Below, in pieces: positions 10,543 to 29,607 of a stretch of 29,859 nucleotides of DNA. The notes beneath the pieces are model-generated. The model was not told where the DNA came from and searched no databases. It saw only the letters and a program-made list of their open reading frames with translations. Source of the DNA: Candidatus Micrarchaeia archaeon (GTDB taxonomy: Archaea; Micrarchaeota; Micrarchaeia; Micrarchaeales; CABMGC01); the NCBI GenBank assembly GCA_049966395.1, contig JBMFUT010000007.1:1-29859 (forward strand), read 5' to 3'. Both the position numbers and the translations under genes were made by a program. The stretch's first letter is position 1, and each line of letters opens with the position of its first letter.

Positions 10543-10684
10543 AAAGTAATCATTTCACAAACAAAATTATAAATAGCCACTACAGTCACAGCCACGCCTA
10601 ATGGCGTAGTTCGAAGAGCGCATGCCGTCTAACCCTGGCACAACGCTTATAAATGAGAGAAAACAAGCTTTCAATGGTGAACCG

Positions 10685-10978
10685 ATGTCTGGAAATCAGG
10701 AATATTCGGCAAGCAGCGGAGTTAACATAGACACAATTTTGGGAGAGGTTTTTGGGCAAGACGCTGGAAGGCAAGGCGTTTATGCCACTGTAGAAGAAAT
10801 AGCCGCAACGTTGCGAAGCCGAGGATACGATGTCAAGAAGGAGGAAGTTGCGAGAATCCTTGATGCAGCAGTGGAAGCTGGAAAGATGGATCGTTTTATT
10901 GGCAGAAGCGGAAACTCTTTAGATATAGTCTATGGCTGGAAGACAAAGATTGACATTCCCCGCATAAGCAATTTCTAG
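10685..10978 (+). CDS. Hypothetical protein, possible winged-helix DNA-binding domain
   Basis: ATG 10685 is preceded by SD GGTGA and by TATA CTTATAAA (10647-10654). The segment TVEEIAATLRSRGYDVKKEEVARILDAAVEAGKM followed by a beta-hairpin-like stretch fits a wHTH pattern. Confidence 0.6.
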   Translation: MSGNQEYSASSGVNIDTILGEVFGQDAGRQGVYATVEEIAATLRSRGYDVKKEEVARILDAAVEAGKMDRFIGRSGNSLDIVYGWKTKIDIPRISNF

Positions 10979-11055
10979 CATTGGAGCCACGCTTTGCCGG
11001 CTTTTTACGCAGTTAAACCATATTTTGCGTCATGTTTTAATTCTTTTCTGCCTAT

Positions 11056-11072
11056 TTATAACTCAGTTATAA
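11056..11072. promoter_or_regulatory. Perfect 8-1-8 inverted repeat TTATAACT-C-AGTTATAA, candidate operator of the suf operon
   Basis: Directly visible palindrome immediately 5' of SD GGTGA (11073-11077) of the regulator gene and downstream of a TATA-like TTTTAATT (11035-11042). Confidence 0.7.
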
Positions 11073-11081
11073 GGTGAGCTG

Positions 11082-11402
11082 TTGGGATCTGCCTACGAGG
11101 AAGCTGCGCACGGCACTGTTCCTGCAATAAGGGCTTCGCTGTCTGTGGCGCTTGCGAAAAAGTACAAGATGAGCGAGTGTGAGATAGCCGAAGCGCTTGG
11201 CATAACCCAGGCCGCAGTGAGCAAGTACCTCTCTGGCAAGTACTCATCCAAAATAAAGCGCTTGCAGGCGCGAATAAGCAAAAGCATGCTTGATGAAGGC
11301 GCAGAGTCAATAGCCGCACACAGGGCAAGCGCCGCAGCATGCCTGTGCGACATATGCGAGAGCATTAGAACATCAAAGTGCTATTTGAGAGGGGCGCATT
11401 GA
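11082..11402 (+). CDS. XRE-like HTH transcriptional regulator (COG2522 / ThiR N-domain-like) with Cys-rich C-terminus
   Basis: TTG start after SD GGTGA. Motifs VPAIRA and HTH EIAEALGITQAAVSKYLSGK. C-terminal CLCDIC-x7-C. Ends 1 nt before sufB. Confidence 0.85.
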   Translation: MGSAYEEAAHGTVPAIRASLSVALAKKYKMSECEIAEALGITQAAVSKYLSGKYSSKIKRLQARISKSMLDEGAESIAAHRASAAACLCDICESIRTSKCYLRGAH

Positions 11403-11403
11403 A

Positions 11404-12810
11404 ATGGCCGACATTCTGAAGGACATAAATGAAGGATACGCTGACAAATACGGATTCAAGACAGATGCGAGATACGAGGCCATGATCAAAGGCATAAGCG
11501 AAGAGAATGTTATTGCCATATCAAAGCTCAAGAAAGAGCCGGAGTGGATGCTTGAAAAGAGACTTGCTGGTTTTAAGGCTTTCGTAAGCAAGCCAACGCC
11601 GCGGTGGGGCACAAGAAGCCTCGATGATATAGACTACAGCAGCATATATACCTACCTGAAGCCAAAGGCCAGGGAAGCCACCAACTGGGATGACGTGCCA
11701 AAGGAAATAAAAGACACCTTCGAAAAGCTCGGCGTTCCAGAAAGCGAGAGAAAATTCTTCGCCGGCGCAGAGGCGCAGTTCGATTCTGAAGCTGTTTACA
11801 GCAGCGTCAAAAAAGAACTGGAGAAACTCGGCGTTATTTTCACTGATACAGACACCGCGGTAAAGAAGTATCCTGACATAGTGAAGAAGTACTTCGGCAC
11901 CATAGTGCCTCCTCTGGACAACAAATTTGCCGCGCTGAACACCGCAGTATGGTCTGGAGGGAGCTTCATATACGTTCCTAAAGGCGTGAAGGTGACTTTG
12001 CCTTTGCAAGCATACTTCAGGATAAACGCCGAAAGCGCAGGGCAGTTCGAACGGACGCTGATAATAGCAGACGAGGGTAGCGAGGTTACTTATTTGGAAG
12101 GCTGCACTGCGCCAATATACTCTTCAACATCGCTTCATTCTGCAGTGGTGGAAATATACGTGGCAAAAGACGCCCACGTGAGGTACATAACCATACAAAA
12201 CTGGTCAAAGAATGTGTACAACCTTGTTACGCAGAGAGCGCACGTGAAGGAGAACGGCCATATGGAATGGGTAGATTTCAACATAGGCAGCAAGCTTAAC
12301 ATGAAGTACCCGAGCGTCTTCCTTATGGAGCCTAGGGCAAAGGGCGACATTCTCTCTGTTGCCGTGGCAAGTGCAAACCAGGTGCAGGATTCAGGCGGCA
12401 AGGCTTACCATCTTGCGCCAGAAACGGTTTCCAAAATAGTTTCAAAAAGCATATCTATAGGAAATGGAGAAACAACCTACCGCGGCCTTGTGCATATAGC
12501 AAAGAATGCCGAAAACTCTATTTCCTCTACTCAATGCGACGCAATGATGGTTGACGACGCATCCAAAACGAACACATTTCCTTATACAGATATAAAGAAC
12601 GAAACTTCTACCCTTTCTCACGAGGCAAGCGTGGGGAGAATAGGGCAAGAACAGCTTGTCTACCTGGAATCGCGCGGCATAAAGGAAGAGGATGCAAAGG
12701 CGCTCATACTGCTTGGTTTTATACAACCTCTGACTGAAGTGATACCATTGGAGTATTCCATAGAGCTCAGCAGACTGATAAGACTCGAACTGCAGAACGC
12801 TGTCGGCTAG
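11404..12810 (+). CDS. sufB: Fe-S cluster assembly scaffold SufB
   Basis: DNKFAALNTAVWSGGSFIYVPKGV, GQFERTLII, YLEGCTAP, IQNWSKNVYNLVTQRA, QCDA, HEASVG. Confidence 0.97.
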   Translation: MADILKDINEGYADKYGFKTDARYEAMIKGISEENVIAISKLKKEPEWMLEKRLAGFKAFVSKPTPRWGTRSLDDIDYSSIYTYLKPKAREATNWDDVPKEIKDTFEKLGVPESERKFFAGAEAQFDSEAVYSSVKKELEKLGVIFTDTDTAVKKYPDIVKKYFGTIVPPLDNKFAALNTAVWSGGSFIYVPKGVKVTLPLQAYFRINAESAGQFERTLIIADEGSEVTYLEGCTAPIYSSTSLHSAVVEIYVAKDAHVRYITIQNWSKNVYNLVTQRAHVKENGHMEWVDFNIGSKLNMKYPSVFLMEPRAKGDILSVAVASANQVQDSGGKAYHLAPETVSKIVSKSISIGNGETTYRGLVHIAKNAENSISSTQCDAMMVDDASKTNTFPYTDIKNETSTLSHEASVGRIGQEQLVYLESRGIKEEDAKALILLGFIQPLTEVIPLEYSIELSRLIRLELQNAVG

Positions 12811-12823
12811 AAGCGGTGAAGCG

Positions 12824-14026
12824 ATGAAAGAGCAAAAAGAAATTTCTAATTACAGAAGCGTGCCAGAAGAAGGCGAGCTCTACAAGAGGAACTTTATACA
12901 CATTCCATTAGAGGATTTTGAATTGACAACTAATGCAACCGGTTCTGGTGATGTCGAGACGAAGGCGTATTCTTCCAAGGCAATGTCAAGCTACGGTATC
13001 AGATTTAGTGCAGAGGCATGGCCGGGCGGCTTTGTCACGCACAGCAAGAACATAACTACCATCAACAGGTCTGCGCCTTTCGAGGGAGTAGGAGCCGACA
13101 TAGGCGGCAGAGCTGTTGCTTTCCTAGAAAGCTTCGCAGACAGGACAATAGAGGTAAATGCAGCCGAGTCTGACGGCGAACAGGATCTTGGACTGCTTTT
13201 AGTAAGTTCGTCCGCCAGGGAAGTACTGCGGCTGTTGGTGAATGCTGGGCAAAATTCCAACCTCAAGCTTACAGTAGTCAGCCTTTCTTCAAGCGCAAAG
13301 TCTTTTTCTGGGATACTGTGCAGCGTGAATGCGATGGATCAGTCAAAAGTTGAGATAAACTACATATACAACCAAGGCAAAAACACTGTAGGCGTTTTCG
13401 CGACTCGCGCAGTCGCAGGAAGTGATGCCAGCATCCAGATAAACAACATTTATACGGGCGCTTCAATAATCAAATCGATAACAGCGATTTCATTAGATGG
13501 CTACAGAGCCCGCGGGAAAATAAACGAGGCTGCGTATCTTGATAGCAGTCAGGCGCTCGATGCGACTACGAGCATAATCAACATTGGCAAAGAGACCGTC
13601 GGGTCGGCAGACTCGCGGGTGGTGGCAAACAGTGGTTCCTCTGCAATAATAAAAAGCTATGCAAAGGTTTACAAAGGGGCAGAAGGCGCTTCATCGCTCA
13701 TAAGGGAAAAGGGAATAACGCTTGACAAAAATTCAAAAATAGAGGCAATACCAATGATGGCGATAGACGAAAGGAACGTCAAGGAGGCAAAGCATTCAGC
13801 AGGCGTATCTCCACTTAGCGACGAGGCCGTTTTCTACCTTTGCGCAAGGGGCATAAAGCCTGAATCAGCTAGAAATCTTGTAGTAAAAAGCATGCTTGCA
13901 TCAAGCATGGCAGCAACGAGCAGCACTATTTCGAAAGTGCTTTCGCCGAGCATACTGTTCTCTAAGCTTGACGGCGCAGAGTATGAAGGCATGCCCTCCA
14001 GCAATGTTAGCGGGATATGGTTCTAG
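12824..14026 (+). CDS. sufD: SufD (SufB paralogue), divergent
   Basis: Beta-helix-like repeats and C-terminal PMMAIDERNVKEAKHSAG and FYLCARGI. SD GGTGA. Position between sufB and sufC. Confidence 0.85.
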   Translation: MKEQKEISNYRSVPEEGELYKRNFIHIPLEDFELTTNATGSGDVETKAYSSKAMSSYGIRFSAEAWPGGFVTHSKNITTINRSAPFEGVGADIGGRAVAFLESFADRTIEVNAAESDGEQDLGLLLVSSSAREVLRLLVNAGQNSNLKLTVVSLSSSAKSFSGILCSVNAMDQSKVEINYIYNQGKNTVGVFATRAVAGSDASIQINNIYTGASIIKSITAISLDGYRARGKINEAAYLDSSQALDATTSIINIGKETVGSADSRVVANSGSSAIIKSYAKVYKGAEGASSLIREKGITLDKNSKIEAIPMMAIDERNVKEAKHSAGVSPLSDEAVFYLCARGIKPESARNLVVKSMLASSMAATSSTISKVLSPSILFSKLDGAEYEGMPSSNVSGIWF

Positions 14027-14039
14027 CCATGGTGAAAAA

Positions 14040-14777
14040 ATGAAGCTTGAAATAAAAAATCTTCATGCATCTATAGGAGAAAAGGAGATACTTAAAGGGG
14101 TAAATCTCTCTATCTCTACAGGTGAGATGCACGTGCTAATGGGTCCAAACGGCTCCGGAAAAACGGTGCTTACCAAAGCGGTGCTTGGCCATCCTGGGGT
14201 CAAGATAACCGAGGGTGACATACTTGCCGATGGCAAGAGCATCCTCGGAATGACTACAGACGAGCGCGCCCGCCTTGGCATATTTCTCCAATTCCAGGAG
14301 CCAGTAGAGATAGAAGGTGTGGGATTTATAAATTTCCTGAGATCTGCCAAGGCTGCGTATGAAAACCTGCCAATAAACGTCTCAAAACTTGTCAGCGAGG
14401 TGAACGACGCAGCAGCAAAGCTGCATATAGAAAAAGGCATGATAGGCAGGTCATTGAACTTCGGAATGTCTGGAGGAGAGAAGAAGAAGGCAGAAATACT
14501 GCAGATGGCAATACTGAAGCCGAAGATAGCCATACTGGACGAGCCCGATTCCGGGCTAGATGTCGATGCGGTCAAGATAGTCGCGAGCAACATAACAAGC
14601 ATATTCGAGGGCGGCAAGGTAGGCATGCTGCTCATAACCCATTACAGTAGGATACTTGAGTACATGAAACCGCAGTTCGTTCACGTTATGCTAAATGGCA
14701 GGATAATAGCAAATGGAGGCCTGGAGATAGTGTCAGACATAGAGAAAAATGGATATGATATTTTCAACAGGGTGTAA
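14040..14777 (+). CDS. sufC: Fe-S cluster assembly ATPase SufC
   Basis: ILKGVNL, GPNGSGKT, DERARLG, FQEPVEI, MSGGEKKK, LDEPDSGLDVDA, LITHY. Start at ATG 14040 after SD GGTGA rather than 13896. Confidence 0.96.
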   Translation: MKLEIKNLHASIGEKEILKGVNLSISTGEMHVLMGPNGSGKTVLTKAVLGHPGVKITEGDILADGKSILGMTTDERARLGIFLQFQEPVEIEGVGFINFLRSAKAAYENLPINVSKLVSEVNDAAAKLHIEKGMIGRSLNFGMSGGEKKKAEILQMAILKPKIAILDEPDSGLDVDAVKIVASNITSIFEGGKVGMLLITHYSRILEYMKPQFVHVMLNGRIIANGGLEIVSDIEKNGYDIFNRV

Positions 14778-16019
14778 ATGATGAAATTCGATGTGAACAA
14801 GATAAGGGAGGACTTCCCGATACTGAAGATCAGGATGGGCGACAGCGAAATAGCCTATCTTGACAGCGCTGCCACTTCTCAGAAGCCGAGGCAGGTTATA
14901 AGTGCCATATCTAGATATTACAAGACCTACAATGCTAACATACACCGCGGGATATATGACATCGCTGAGCGCGCGACAGAGGAATACAAAGAGTCTAAAG
15001 ATCTTCTTGCCGAGTTTATTGGTGCGCATAGCTACAGAGAAATAGTTTACGTGAGAAACACCACAGAGGCGATAAATCTTGTGGCGCTGACATGGGGCGA
15101 GGCAAACATAAAGAGAGGAGACCACATACTCATAACAAAGATGGAGCACCATAGCAACCTTGTCCCGTGGATTATGCTTGCAAGGCGCAAGGGCGCTGTG
15201 CTTGACTACGTGGAGCTGAAGGACGAGTCTTTTGTAGACATCGACGATTATAAGCAGAAGCTCGGATTTTCGCCAAAACTGGTCGCTTTTACTCACGTTT
15301 CGAATGTCTTGGGCACTGTAAACGACGTTGAAAAAATGACTAAACTCGCGCACGATGCAGGGGCATTAGTGCTAGTCGACGGCGCCCAGTCCGCGCCGCA
15401 TATGAAAGTGGATGTAAGCAAGATTGGCTGCGATTTTTTTGCCCTATCTGGCCACAAAATGCTGGCGCCGCTCGGGATAGGGGCGCTTTATGCCAGGGAA
15501 GAAATACTTGAGAAAACCGAACCTCTTCTTGGTGGTGGCGACATGATAAACAGCGTGGAGCTGCAGTCTTGCACGTGGAATGAGCTGCCGTGGAAGTTCG
15601 AGGCCGGAACGCAGAATATAGAAGGGGCGATAGGCCTTACAGCAGCTATAAAATACCTTAACAAGGTAGGAATGGAAAACATAAGGGAGCACGAAAAGTC
15701 CCTGACTGCATATGCGCTAAAGCGTCTAAACGAGACTGAGGGTGTGACTGTCTATGGACCTTCAGGGAAAGATATCAATTCCAAGGCAGGAGTAATTTCT
15801 TTCAACGTGGAAAACATCCATCCGCACGACCTTTCAGAAGTATTCAACAGCAAGGGCATCGCGATAAGAAGCGGCCACCATTGTGCCATGCCACTTGTGA
15901 CAAGTGTGCTTGGCGCCGGCGCAGTGGCTAGAGCAAGCTTCTACCTTTACAACAAGGAGGAAGAAGTCGACAGGATGGTAGATGCAATAGAAACAGCAAA
16001 GCGTTTCTTCAAGAAGTAA
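14778..16019 (+). CDS. sufS: Cysteine desulfurase, group II (SufS)
   Basis: YLDSAATSQKP, EHHSN, DGAQS, PLP lysine in SGHK, catalytic Cys in RSGHHCA, RASFYLYN. Confidence 0.96.
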   Translation: MMKFDVNKIREDFPILKIRMGDSEIAYLDSAATSQKPRQVISAISRYYKTYNANIHRGIYDIAERATEEYKESKDLLAEFIGAHSYREIVYVRNTTEAINLVALTWGEANIKRGDHILITKMEHHSNLVPWIMLARRKGAVLDYVELKDESFVDIDDYKQKLGFSPKLVAFTHVSNVLGTVNDVEKMTKLAHDAGALVLVDGAQSAPHMKVDVSKIGCDFFALSGHKMLAPLGIGALYAREEILEKTEPLLGGGDMINSVELQSCTWNELPWKFEAGTQNIEGAIGLTAAIKYLNKVGMENIREHEKSLTAYALKRLNETEGVTVYGPSGKDINSKAGVISFNVENIHPHDLSEVFNSKGIAIRSGHHCAMPLVTSVLGAGAVARASFYLYNKEEEVDRMVDAIETAKRFFKK

Positions 16020-20642: not shown

Positions 20643-23105
20643 TTACTGCGAGCTGTTGTATATTATCCTGAATATCTTGGTGTCGGTGTTAATGTATACA
20701 AGCTGCATTTTTGCCACGCTGCTATTCCAGAGGCACTGCTGGTTGTTGCAGAAGTATAGGAACTTAAGCATGTTGCTTAATTCAAGGCCTGTGTTAAACA
20801 CATAACCGCCGGTTATGTTTATGGCCATGTTTGGGTTCCTTATGGTAGAATATGCTATTACCAGGAGCTCTCCGTTTGTCTTGTTGTATGCGTTCTGCCT
20901 CACAATGCTGAACGTGCCATTTACAACGTTGTAGAATGCGACGTAAGTCACTGGGGATATGCCGTTGCTGTAAATGAGGTAGCTGCTCACCGCCTGTGTG
21001 TTATTTACAACCTTGAGGATTGTCCTTTCAGAAATGCCATTGGGGCTTGAAAAGGTTATTATCTGCGTGCTGGCGTTTACATATTCGGACATTCGCGAGA
21101 AGGGCAGGTAGCCGAATAAGCTGGCGTTTTCCTTGGTGCCGGACTCAGTATATATGCCAGAAGTTTCAAGGAGCCAAGAATACCTGACAAGCAGGTAATT
21201 TGGCTTTCCGTTTATGCTGCTAGTCAAAAACTGTCCGTCCGGGCTTGAATTGAGGAGCCATGCCGCAAATGCATCTGCCTTTGTGACATTCTGCGAGCCG
21301 ACGCTGTCAGTTACGCTTGTCCTGTTGGCTACCCCCTCTACAACGCTGCCGTCTGGCCACAATGTAAGCACCACCGCATTCGCGCTCGAATTGTTCTTCA
21401 GCCACTCCAGCGCGCTTATGAACTGTGGATTAATGTTGTCTGCTTGCACAAGCACAGAAGTATATACAACTGCAAGGAAGAACATGTATATGCATAGCGC
21501 AGCCAGTACTCCATAGCCGATCATTTTGTATCTCTTGAATCTGAGCACCAGCCAGTAGACTGTATAAGCAGAGAATATTGCCAATGGCACTGCGAGAAGC
21601 GAATTGAACCTTACTGCGTGCATTTGGAGGTAAGCAGTGGTAGCGTAGTATGCAATAAGCACAAGCAAGGCTTCGTCAATGCCGAACCTCCATACGGCGT
21701 GATTCTCCCCATTCCTGTTTTCAATTTTCATGAATGCGTAAGGCGCGAAAAATATAAGCATCAGAAACCACATTACGTACTTGGGGTGCAGGATGTAAGA
21801 TGAAAGGTATACCACTATTGCCATTGGCGTAGTAAAAAGGCTAGCTCCGAAGCTTGCGAAAAGGAACTGGGGCGTTGGTGGCTGCAATTCCTCTATCGTC
21901 ACTGCAAAATTGCTCCCGGTGGTTATGAAACCATTTGCAACGAATATGGAGTAGACAAAAGCCGGCGCCGCAACGTCTATTGCTATCAGTGCTGCAGCAA
22001 CAAAGATCGTCGCGGTAACGAATCTCCCCCTCGGCGTCTGCACGAACAAAAGTCTTTCCTTGTTCTTCAGCAGATAGTCAGCAAGGAAATATCCTATGAA
22101 CATTAGGGCAAGGAGCATGATGAAGTACTTTCCTGTGAAGGTCTGCTCAAGTATGAACTCAAGGAATTTGTAGAGGTTGACGAGCAGGTACCACAAAAGC
22201 ATTGCAATGAGCATGTAGCCGCTGTTCCTAAGCATCTTCCTGTCGGCAATCACAAAGGCATAAGCTGCTATGAAGAAAAATGCAACGACGTAAGTTGCTG
22301 TGGCAAACGGCGCACCGTTCCAAACGAAATTGCACACGCTCAGGAAAAAGCCTGAGAGCAGGGCGTATTTCAACTTTGCATTTTTGTCGTTGGTCTTTGC
22401 TATCTTTATGGCGAAGAAGAGCGCAATTATAAGGAAAATGGTCACGAAGCCGTCTCCCCTGTAGATGAGCGTGCTTGTCCTTGCTGCGTCACCCATGCTC
22501 AGCGCAACGAAGAGCATTGCAAGGAGACCGAGCAACCTGCTCTTGCCAAGGTACCTTACCAGGTAATAAGCGCCTATGACGTCGAATACGCCGAAAAGCA
22601 CTGGTATGAGCCTCATTATGGTGTAATAGCTCACGCCAAAGAAACGCAAGAAGAAATACGGAGCCAGCGTTACCCAGTAGAGGCCATGAGGCTCCCCAGT
22701 ATAAGTATGCGCGGGCCATCCTGAAAGAACGAGGTATTTCGGTATTATGAAACCGTCATTGACCGCAGCTCTTATAACAGAGAAATGGTAGAAGCCGTCA
22801 GGTTCATAAAAGCCGAAATACTTGAGCATCGGTATTCTGAAATATATTGTCACTACAATTATAGCTATGATCGCGGCAATGAATAGCCAGTCTGCCCCTG
22901 TGAGATTTTTGATGCTGTTTGAAAGTATCTTCTTCTCTATTTTTTTCTCTGCTGTTCTGTCTGCCTCCAGTTTTTCTTCGTCTTTTATTTCCTTCTTTAG
23001 TATCCTCTCTTCTTTGTCAATGAGCTTTTCGCTGCTTTCGACGAGGCGCTTCTCACCCTCCAGTCTGCGCAGTTTGTCATTCAATTCGGACTCTGATTCT
23101 GGCAA
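20643..23105 (-). CDS. aglB: STT3/AglB-family oligosaccharyltransferase with atypical WWDxG motif (LWPDG)
   Basis: About 13 TM helices. EPDGFYH (first catalytic Asp), YRGD (RxD variant of DxD), TIEELQP (TIxE), AVRF, ALEWLKNN...LTLWPDG...ANRTSVTD, C-terminal KIFRI. TTG start. Confidence 0.85.
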   Translation of the reverse strand: MPESESELNDKLRRLEGEKRLVESSEKLIDKEERILKKEIKDEEKLEADRTAEKKIEKKILSNSIKNLTGADWLFIAAIIAIIVVTIYFRIPMLKYFGFYEPDGFYHFSVIRAAVNDGFIIPKYLVLSGWPAHTYTGEPHGLYWVTLAPYFFLRFFGVSYYTIMRLIPVLFGVFDVIGAYYLVRYLGKSRLLGLLAMLFVALSMGDAARTSTLIYRGDGFVTIFLIIALFFAIKIAKTNDKNAKLKYALLSGFFLSVCNFVWNGAPFATATYVVAFFFIAAYAFVIADRKMLRNSGYMLIAMLLWYLLVNLYKFLEFILEQTFTGKYFIMLLALMFIGYFLADYLLKNKERLLFVQTPRGRFVTATIFVAAALIAIDVAAPAFVYSIFVANGFITTGSNFAVTIEELQPPTPQFLFASFGASLFTTPMAIVVYLSSYILHPKYVMWFLMLIFFAPYAFMKIENRNGENHAVWRFGIDEALLVLIAYYATTAYLQMHAVRFNSLLAVPLAIFSAYTVYWLVLRFKRYKMIGYGVLAALCIYMFFLAVVYTSVLVQADNINPQFISALEWLKNNSSANAVVLTLWPDGSVVEGVANRTSVTDSVGSQNVTKADAFAAWLLNSSPDGQFLTSSINGKPNYLLVRYSWLLETSGIYTESGTKENASLFGYLPFSRMSEYVNASTQIITFSSPNGISERTILKVVNNTQAVSSYLIYSNGISPVTYVAFYNVVNGTFSIVRQNAYNKTNGELLVIAYSTIRNPNMAINITGGYVFNTGLELSNMLKFLYFCNNQQCLWNSSVAKMQLVYINTDTKIFRIIYNSSQ

Positions 23106-28441: not shown

Positions 28442-29607
28442 AGCTCCCTATCCAATAGCTGCTCACTTCCATATTTTGATTCTTTGTTGATAACCTCCTT
28501 GATCATCTTTAAGAAATTTGCCCCACCTGATTCTATGTCAAATTTTTCTACGCTTTCCAAGGCCTTATTCTTCATCGAACTCAGGTCCATGCTTGCCATT
28601 TGCATCATTTTTTCGGCTAGATCCTTGTAATCCAATCTTTTATAGATCATACCATTGACGTTATCTTTCACTATGGCATTTATATCCGAAGTAAAGAATC
28701 TGTCCAATCTGGCACCAGAAAACGGGTCTATTTTCTCGTTGAATTCATCATCTATCAGCACAGGAACCCCAGACGCCAAAGAAATAATTATCTGCTTAAG
28801 GTCCAAATGCTTCATAGGCGCCATAAAGGAAAATCTATGCTCCCTTAAATATGATATATACAATTCCCTTGGAAGTATAGGAATAAATCTAAAGTACTCC
28901 AAGAGTTTCTTCTTCCTAAGCACCTCTTGAAAACTTTCTTTGTCCCCTCCACTTGCAGTAATTTCTATCAGCAAGTCGTTTGTTTCTAGGAAATCCGTAT
29001 CTTTTACTATGTAATCTACAGCCTTTACAATCAAGTCAAGATTCGTTTGGCGTGAGCTCAACCTGGAGAAGAAAAGTATTGGTTTTTTAGGGTCGTCTTT
29101 CAATTGCTCGTTTGAGCGTACGAAGTATGCATGGTCTATGAATGGTAGCATCCTCTTTATTGCTTCGTTTTCCCCGAATAGCTTCTTTGCCAGCAGCTCA
29201 TCTTCGTGCGAAAACACCACATACATGTCGATGTTGCCTACCAATTTGGTGAAATTCCGCTTTATTCTTTGGAATGGGAAATCGAATATTGAAACCTTAG
29301 CCGCCAAATCTTTGATAAACTCAAATTTGTCCACAAATATTATTATGGGATTTACCCTTGTCCTCTTGATGTACTCGTTTATGAACGGAAAGTCCATAGG
29401 GCTGAAAGTTATTATCATGTTATATATTTTTTTCAGAACAGCTTCGCGTGTCTGTACTGAAATCTCTTTCGGCTTGTCATAATACAGATTTTTGTATAAG
29501 CTTACGTCAAAGCCTGCCCTGGCTAATACCTTGTAATAGTTGAATGATTCGTAATAGTTCTCCCCTCCGGGCAAATACACTCCGGTGTCAACCATTAGAA
29601 CTTTCAT
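28438..29607 (-). CDS. GT-B-fold glycosyltransferase (GT4-like), degenerate
   Basis: N-terminal MKVLMV...PGGE, LFFSRL, SLASGVPVL, IVKDNVNGMI, DLAEKM. TATA TTTTATAA about 23 nt upstream of the ATG. Confidence 0.75.
   Translation of the reverse strand: MKVLMVDTGVYLPGGENYYESFNYYKVLARAGFDVSLYKNLYYDKPKEISVQTREAVLKKIYNMIITFSPMDFPFINEYIKRTRVNPIIIFVDKFEFIKDLAAKVSIFDFPFQRIKRNFTKLVGNIDMYVVFSHEDELLAKKLFGENEAIKRMLPFIDHAYFVRSNEQLKDDPKKPILFFSRLSSRQTNLDLIVKAVDYIVKDTDFLETNDLLIEITASGGDKESFQEVLRKKKLLEYFRFIPILPRELYISYLREHRFSFMAPMKHLDLKQIIISLASGVPVLIDDEFNEKIDPFSGARLDRFFTSDINAIVKDNVNGMIYKRLDYKDLAEKMMQMASMDLSSMKNKALESVEKFDIESGGANFLKMIKEVINKESKYGSEQLLDREL

Follow-up and report, generated by a model that had tools for sequence, protein, structure and literature searches.

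In the 29,859-nt window analysed here (the whole stretch of DNA, from a Candidatus Micrarchaeia archaeon), the genes of the SUF system for Fe-S cluster assembly follow a gene for a 106-aa helix-turn-helix (HTH) protein, in the order HTH-sufB-sufD-sufC-sufS, with a palindrome in front. The question raised by this locus is whether the protein controls the suf genes through the palindrome and, if so, to what signal its cysteines respond. Genome comparison indicates a real and well-conserved pair of regulator and predicted operator serving archaeal Fe-S and sulfur genes.

The suf locus and its promoter

The features of the locus are collected in Table 1. We noted that the original prediction was accurate in its positions for the palindrome (11056-11072), the TGC codons (11340, 11346, 11355 and 11379) and the regulator ORF (11082-11402); the TATA-like box and Shine-Dalgarno sequence that it placed around the palindrome are also both found, the box being weak here. 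The regulator ORF begins with TTG (with CTG in frame at 11079), and its stop codon falls 1 nt before the sufB ATG at 11404. An apparent ACG start codon of the regulator in locus L015 hints at the use of non-canonical start codons here. The longest ORF of sufC starts at 13896, and a sufU-like gene of the source genome (G000) lies on a separate contig. Directly upstream of the locus, on the same strand, a small ORF (10622-10978) gave no family match below E 0.01. In about 14 of 61 relatives (L057, L058, L068, L294, L297 and others) sufB carries an in-frame insertion near residue 235, with open frames of about 620-890 aa; the insertion looks like an intein, and a SufB intein is known from mycobacteria.

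Table 1. Features of the regulator-suf locus, with positions in the window
Feature	Position	Strand	Basis and remarks
Weak TATA-like box TTTTAATT	11035..11042	+	Sequence; putative role; centre of operator 29 nt downstream
Operator palindrome TTATAACTCAGTTATAA (predicted)	11056..11072	none	Core TATAAC-N3-GTTATA at 11057-11071; predicted overlap with transcription start
Shine-Dalgarno-like GGTGAG	11073..11078	+	Sequence; G-rich positions after the site also in orthologues
106-aa all-helical HTH regulator	11082..11402	+	Pfam HTH_3/HTH_5; pLDDT 86.7; ThiN fusions
Helix-turn-helix, residues 26-62, QAAVSKY helix conserved	11157..11267	+	Pfam; alignment
Conserved Cys C89-x2-C92-x7-C100	11346..11381	+	36-sequence alignment; 28/28 and 76/80 loci
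sufB	11404..12810	+	TIGR01980, 675 bits, above cut-off
sufD-like	12824..14026	+	PF01458; TIGR01981 best match, below cut-off
sufC	14043..14777	+	TIGR01978 above cut-off, match from ORF residue 51; ATG start probable
sufS cysteine desulfurase	14778..16019	+	TIGR01979 above cut-off

The perfection of the palindrome alone means little, because the 694-kb source genome holds 16 perfect 8-1-8 palindromes. The exact motif TATAAC-N3-GTTATA, in turn, occurs only twice in that genome and not at all with one mismatch, against an expectation of 0.03-0.04, and the window has a single match (with up to one mismatch) versus a shuffle mean of 0.05. Scanning G000 with a weight matrix likewise revealed no sites beyond these two (scores of 26.7 and 24.6, then 10.6). 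They precede HTH-sufBDCS and, on contig C22, a gene for a thioredoxin-fold protein with two thioredoxin-type CxxC domains, so that the genome scan proposed in the original prediction did yield one more exact site. The centre of this second site is 31 nt downstream of a TTTAAAAT box, and the site lies just 5' of the Shine-Dalgarno sequence of the thioredoxin-fold gene (L001:4455-5105, minus strand), which has an apparent ATA start codon after GGTGA. A 9-1-9 palindrome at 20800-20818 of the window, with a similar ATAAC..GTTAT arm and a 5-nt spacer, lies within a membrane-protein ORF and is probably due to chance.

Over 74 orthologous promoters, the base profile has a nearly invariant operator core, and A/T content peaks 25-33 nt 5' of the operator centre; the TATA position was taken from this profile (a regular-expression count of TATA caught only 29 of 71 promoters). 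The archaeal TATA box lies about 26-30 nt before the transcription start. Given this spacing, the peak would put the operator over the transcription start, which is the usual position for a repressor, and from this position of the site we consider repression quite probable. A sigma-70 promoter scan found nothing, as expected of a model that does not apply to archaea.

Operator and regulator across genomes

Within the regulator's own family (28 loci, including G000) the site is exact at 27 loci and has one mismatch at one, CxxC-x7/8-C is present in all 28 proteins, and sufB is the next gene in 27. We compared these with GTDB genomes, using the best 80 of 314 loci, a set that may overlap that of the related genomes. 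Among these best 80, the Cys tail was found at 76; every one of the 76 had the operator (73 exact) and 71 had sufB in the locus, while the four Cys-less matches had neither (site 0/4, sufB 0/4). The co-occurrence of Cys tail, suf adjacency and palindrome that had been proposed as a check was thus borne out, and the counts support the predicted autoregulation of the suf operon through a conserved operator. Genome-wide, the exact motif occurred in 49 of 61 related genomes (which, through kinship, are not independent in any of the operator counts), versus 8 for a reversed control. HTH-suf loci also appeared in L079, L138, L123 and L143, whose titles (Saccharimonadales, bacterium or Marsarchaeota) are probably mislabelled or reflect mis-binning.

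The site keeps its place when the regulator gene does not. In one family (f3) this gene has moved between sufD and sufC (sufB-sufD-HTH-sufC-sufS) and the site is still before sufB: at 32 loci (34 minus L054 and L176) it is exact in 27, has one mismatch in 1 and two in 4, all of the latter belonging to one genus. Where the suf operon is split (G016), the HTH gene, sufB and sufS each have a site of their own. Natural losses of the regulator point the same way. Eleven genomes from 7 genera have sufB and no regulator match (in G009 and G028 as judged only from a query with one protein and a profile search at the suf locus), and the 400 nt before sufB (180 nt for L298) contain no site at any of their 12 sufB loci, even when one mismatch is allowed. 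Decayed relics of the operator are visible in two of these genomes, G030 and G158; as a counter-example, G121, also without the regulator, has one exact site elsewhere. By this comparison, a link between the operator and the 106-aa regulator is very probable.

Further sites revealed what else the regulator may control. We examined 25 of them, upstream of ZIP-like transporters (8), radical SAM enzymes (4), Fe/Mn superoxide dismutases (SOD; 2), suf genes (2), a pair of uncharacterised proteins (2) and single DoxX, PALP-family and membrane-protein genes, with 4 unassigned. The ZIP-like transporters are homologous to one another; a Pfam Zip match was obtained for 3 of the 5 scanned (1 above cut-off), the other 2 being without match. 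The uncharacterised pair (L034:1825-2160 and L060:1342-1710), proteins of 112-123 aa with the operator upstream in two families, are 47% identical and share three cysteines; neither had a Pfam match, and the ESM Atlas held nothing for L034. The SOD promoter of G000 has no operator. Repeated TGCA-containing inverted motifs in it (G000:C4, about 28990-29060) may be the site of another regulator. The predicted picture is one of an autoregulated operon plus a small, lineage-variable regulon.

A second set of 20 homologues of the same class lies outside families f1-f3. Seven adjoin sufC or sufB, eight adjoin a cysteine desulfurase gene (NifS/IscS-type in 4 of 4 tested, with NifU next in 3 of 3 tested), four share a block with thiI, thi4 and cysS (one of these blocks being annotated), and one has no such neighbour. 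The site is at the head of the gene or operon in 11 of the 20; of the 9 with no site at the promoter, 3 are beside suf genes. The recurrence of suf or nifSU neighbours across families suggests that the regulator tracks Fe-S assembly, whichever machinery is present.

More distant homologues, at 80 metagenome loci on contigs that carry no taxonomy, have a median identity of 35% to the window protein (65 of 80 aligning). Even so, the exact 13-mer ATAAC-N3-GTTAT was present at 62 of 80 loci versus 0 of 80 in the control, and in the 150 nt upstream it was found within one mismatch in 70 of 76 versus 4 in the control. Named members of this family come from Aenigm-, Thor-, Odin- and Hydrothermarchaeota. 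From the neighbourhoods we scanned a hand-picked set of 46 of 173 ORFs, in most cases the gene that follows: 19 were related to sulfur or Fe-S, 10 belonged to other families and 17 had no match at 1e-18. The sulfur-related ones include ThiI (5), SepSecS-family proteins (3), class-V aminotransferases (3), sulfite reductase (2) and FdhD (2), as well as PAPS reductase, PALP, MoaE and SufBD. At six loci (L217, L218, L220, L221, L222 and L224) the operator is about 400-420 nt after the regulator start, just 3' of the regulator gene and before a short stretch and a small ORF, where it may stand in front of a gene for a small RNA or a tRNA. The Fe-S cluster would unite iron import and SOD, found in one lineage, with the sulfur assimilation and transfer of another. 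Comparison demonstrates, at the level of sequence, the palindromic site, its classes of target and the conservation of the cysteines.

The cysteines, ThiR-type proteins and a Cys-less paralogue

In the structure model (pLDDT 86.7) the protein is all-helical, without a beta wing; C89 and C92 are on one helix and C100 comes just after it. These three cysteines are invariant in an alignment of 36 sequences, as are Q43, A45 and K48 of the HTH. The original prediction had described a C-x-C-x2-C-x7-C tail, and all of its codons are present; only the last three cysteines (89, 92 and 100), however, are conserved, since C87 (codon 11340) varies, being present in 20 of 28 and 43 of 76 orthologues, and four invariant cysteines were therefore rejected. 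Suf-linked exceptions comprise one copy with CxxC only and two with a shifted third Cys (L187; L306, L188). We also rejected co-variation of recognition helix and operator, because QAE-type helices go with exact sites at 6 loci and with variant sites at 5. Searches of solved structures and folds gave generic HTH matches only (best Z 5.5; NsrR Z 3.7, rmsd 3.8, 70 aligned; no Foldseek match at E up to 0.001), and a missing match of this kind does not show a new fold. Matches in the ESM Atlas were unnamed archaeal HTH clusters only, JGI names the homologues 'predicted transcriptional regulator', the protein may fall under COG2522, and viral contigs gave 2 weak HTH matches. Prediction of a homodimer with a 4Fe-4S cluster scored 0.02; it gave no answer and is not used as evidence.

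The relatives of the domain are more telling. As had been proposed, the HTH resembles the DNA-binding domain of ThiR: of the 84 longer homologues, 83 carry ThiN (PF10120, E down to 2.8e-10) and are ThiR-type. G000 itself has no PF10120 match. In 64 of these 83 ThiR-type proteins CxxC-x8-C occurs together with ThiN, mostly alongside a CxxH..CxxC module and an N-terminal Cys, and in 19 of the 83 the N-terminal Cys and CxxC are lost together. The idea that the Cys tail had replaced a ligand-binding domain thus did not hold, because tail and ThiN coexist; judged from this distribution, the tail is an ancestral, putative metal site of the domain. The N-terminal Cys is present in 79 of 79 distant homologues that could be parsed, and CxxC in 78 of 79. 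In the suf-linked copies of the order, Tyr takes the place of the N-terminal Cys, which therefore leaves three cysteines, or four with C87. Two proteins, P0020 and P0069, have two tandem copies of the domain and are natural single-chain dimers, from which the position of the N-terminal Cys might be read.

In most genomes of the order the regulator is matched twice. The second, a Cys-less paralogue, is encoded in G000 on contig C22 (L001:8070-8393, minus strand) between RpiB/LacAB-like and PolX-like genes; the RpiB-like neighbour recurs in many relatives. At 26 paralogue loci we found CxxC in none (0/26), a site at the paralogue's own promoter in none (0/26) and an N-terminal Cys in 22, and the recognition helix is nearly the same as the regulator's. 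In the 10 genomes of the order with a single match, the copy is the suf-linked CxxC type; the paralogue never occurs alone, and none of the 11 genomes that lack the suf copy has it. Complementary loss of cysteines and this one-way co-loss suggest that paralogue and suf copy are functionally coupled, and the paralogue may be a partner of the regulator. A quick tree (120 columns, 4 starred branches) grouped suf copies and paralogues (SH-aLRT 93) and nested ThiR among the stand-alone forms at low support. Gene duplication and the direction of ThiN fusion are, on this basis, suggestions only. One may join these strands into an ancient, archaea-wide family of Fe-S sensors with one operator from DPANN to distant lineages, ThiR being a derived ThiN fusion and duplication within the order having split the ligands between the members of a pair (a heterodimer, or a sensor and its modulator); as a whole, this picture is quite doubtful.

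What the regulator may sense

The reading that we favour, with moderate confidence, is that of an Fe-S-loaded repressor which sits over the transcription start and is released when Fe-S supply fails. The regulator, presumably dimeric, would bind TATAAC-N3-GTTATA over the predicted start, with the TATA box on one side and the ribosome-binding site on the other, thereby repressing HTH-sufBDCS and the regulon. A labile Fe-S cluster, made by the very machinery under the regulator's control, would most likely be bound by C89, C92 and C100, the fourth ligand being C87 or, in proteins that lack it, a non-Cys residue; upon iron or sulfur shortage, or oxidative damage to the cluster, the apo form would leave the promoter. 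Dimerisation, cofactor and DNA-binding form are thus all predicted. A mixed ligand set has a precedent, as IscR uses three Cys and one non-Cys ligand according to the available part of a review (PMC8593673). Fe-S loading would account for the association with both SUF and NifSU, for metal-import and SOD targets in this lineage and for sulfur-supply genes elsewhere, and we count in its favour that Rrf2, DtxR and Fur had no match in G000 (89% complete). Some observations speak against it: a CxxC on one helix resembles zinc sites more than the widely spaced ligands of SufR and IscR, and the Cys motif of ThiR-type proteins, in which the effector is expected on ThiN, fits a structural metal site. 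The suf-linked copies with an incomplete or shifted Cys set, the 9 of 20 homologues with no site at the promoter and the SOD promoter of G000 also count on this side.

The cysteines could instead bind a single metal ion, either as the signal (Fe2+ or Zn2+, repressing ZIP import and suf) or as structural Zn with another effector. Consistent with this, the ancestral Cys set co-varies as a site (the joint loss in 19 of 83 ThiR-type proteins), ZIP-like transporters are the commonest secondary target and could equally point to zinc, and neither Fur nor DtxR matched in G000; but zinc does not explain why the regulator is linked, in several lineages, to suf, nifSU and sulfur genes, and a stand-alone 106-aa protein has no other domain for an effector. 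We regard a single ion as unlikely. Alternatively, the same repressor and operator may work without any Fe-S cluster, the cysteines acting as a thiol switch that responds to sulfane sulfur, oxidants or cysteine through Zn ejection, a disulfide or persulfidation. We regard this as only slightly less unlikely, although the targets of distant homologues are mostly in sulfur transfer and assimilation (ThiI, SepSecS-family, sulfite reductase and others), the second G000 site precedes the two-CxxC thioredoxin-fold gene, SOD is a target in 2 relatives and CxxC is the sole universally kept pair; a redox-active archaeal regulator, SurR, is a precedent (PMC10746257). A third Cys (N-terminal or C100) is, however, nearly always kept, which is more than a disulfide needs, and metal importers at 8 of 25 sites are not expected of a purely sulfur sensor.

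It is very improbable that the palindrome is not this protein's operator at all and instead consists of two TATA-like elements placed back to back, or is bound by the Cys-less paralogue or by some other factor. Each arm does contain TTATAA, the paralogue has the nearly identical recognition helix, and helix variants do not track site variants. Nevertheless, the C-N3-G core is invariant, a separate A/T-rich box lies upstream and no divergent gene is present here; the site disappears where the regulator does, paralogues lack it at their own promoters (0/26), and genomes and lineages with the Cys type alone still have it.

Under the favoured reading of an Fe-S-loaded repressor, this HTH protein, although unlike SufR and IscR, probably fills the role that these two have in bacteria. 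In the searchable literature, which excludes subscription papers, RegPrecise-type databases and supplements, we found no description of a dedicated archaeal regulator of Fe-S assembly, or of this regulator or motif, and in its available part a review (PMC8593673) lists IscR and SufR for bacteria only. The 106-aa protein and its 17-bp site provide a concrete candidate protein, operator and regulon. Should the protein bear a cluster, transcription factors that sense Fe-S would have arisen independently once more, here on the domain of ThiR. Genome-reduced, host-dependent archaea are predicted to keep feedback control of SUF. The operator can also guide the search for Fe-S and sulfur genes among uncultured archaea, the pair at L034 and L060 being an example.

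Among known systems, SufR of cyanobacteria and some actinobacteria (PMC8593673 and PMC6034842, as excerpted) is similar in layout, having an N-terminal HTH and a C-terminal Cys cluster, being encoded with suf and acting as an autorepressor at a perfect palindrome, as predicted here. The details differ: in the excerpted text of PMC8593673, SufR binds a [4Fe-4S] cluster through C-X12-C-X13-C-X14-C and recognizes CAAC-N6-GTTG, whereas the window protein has C-x2-C-x7/8-C within 106 aa and the site TATAAC-N3-GTTATA, and the regulon here extends to ZIP-like, radical SAM and SOD genes. IscR, like the window protein, is encoded by the first gene of an Fe-S assembly operon and has three conserved cysteines, and homologues here precede nifS-nifU as iscR precedes iscSU; its ligands (C92, C98, C104 and H107 in the same excerpts), however, are spaced differently. 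Neither a SufR model nor the Rrf2 winged-helix domain (PF02082) matched the protein at E up to 0.1, and PF02082 had no match in the genome, in agreement with the original view that the protein is of neither type.

Archaeal iron homeostasis is also controlled through a palindrome by haloarchaeal DtxR-family regulators such as TroR, but these belong to another family and their motif is different (TTTAGGC-NNN-CCTAAAA); DtxR factors of Halobacterium salinarum regulate iron systems including SUF (both from the available portion of PMC10783522). PF02742 (DtxR C-terminal) and PF01475 (Fur) had no match in the protein or in G000. Since Cys spacing, operator and domain searches all differ or are negative, membership of SufR, Rrf2, DtxR and Fur was rejected. 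Closest is ThiR, the archaeal HTH-ThiN regulator of thiamine genes (PMC10746257; also mentioned in PMC13325395 and cited in PMC8305020, all as excerpted). The N-terminal domains of the two are homologous, with the QAAVSKY helix and CxxC-x8-C in common, whereas the window protein is without ThiN, the N-terminal Cys and the CxxH..CxxC module, and its predicted targets are Fe-S and redox genes. The sites of ThiR, too, may be TATAAC-N3-GTTATA-like palindromes, as the original prediction put forward.
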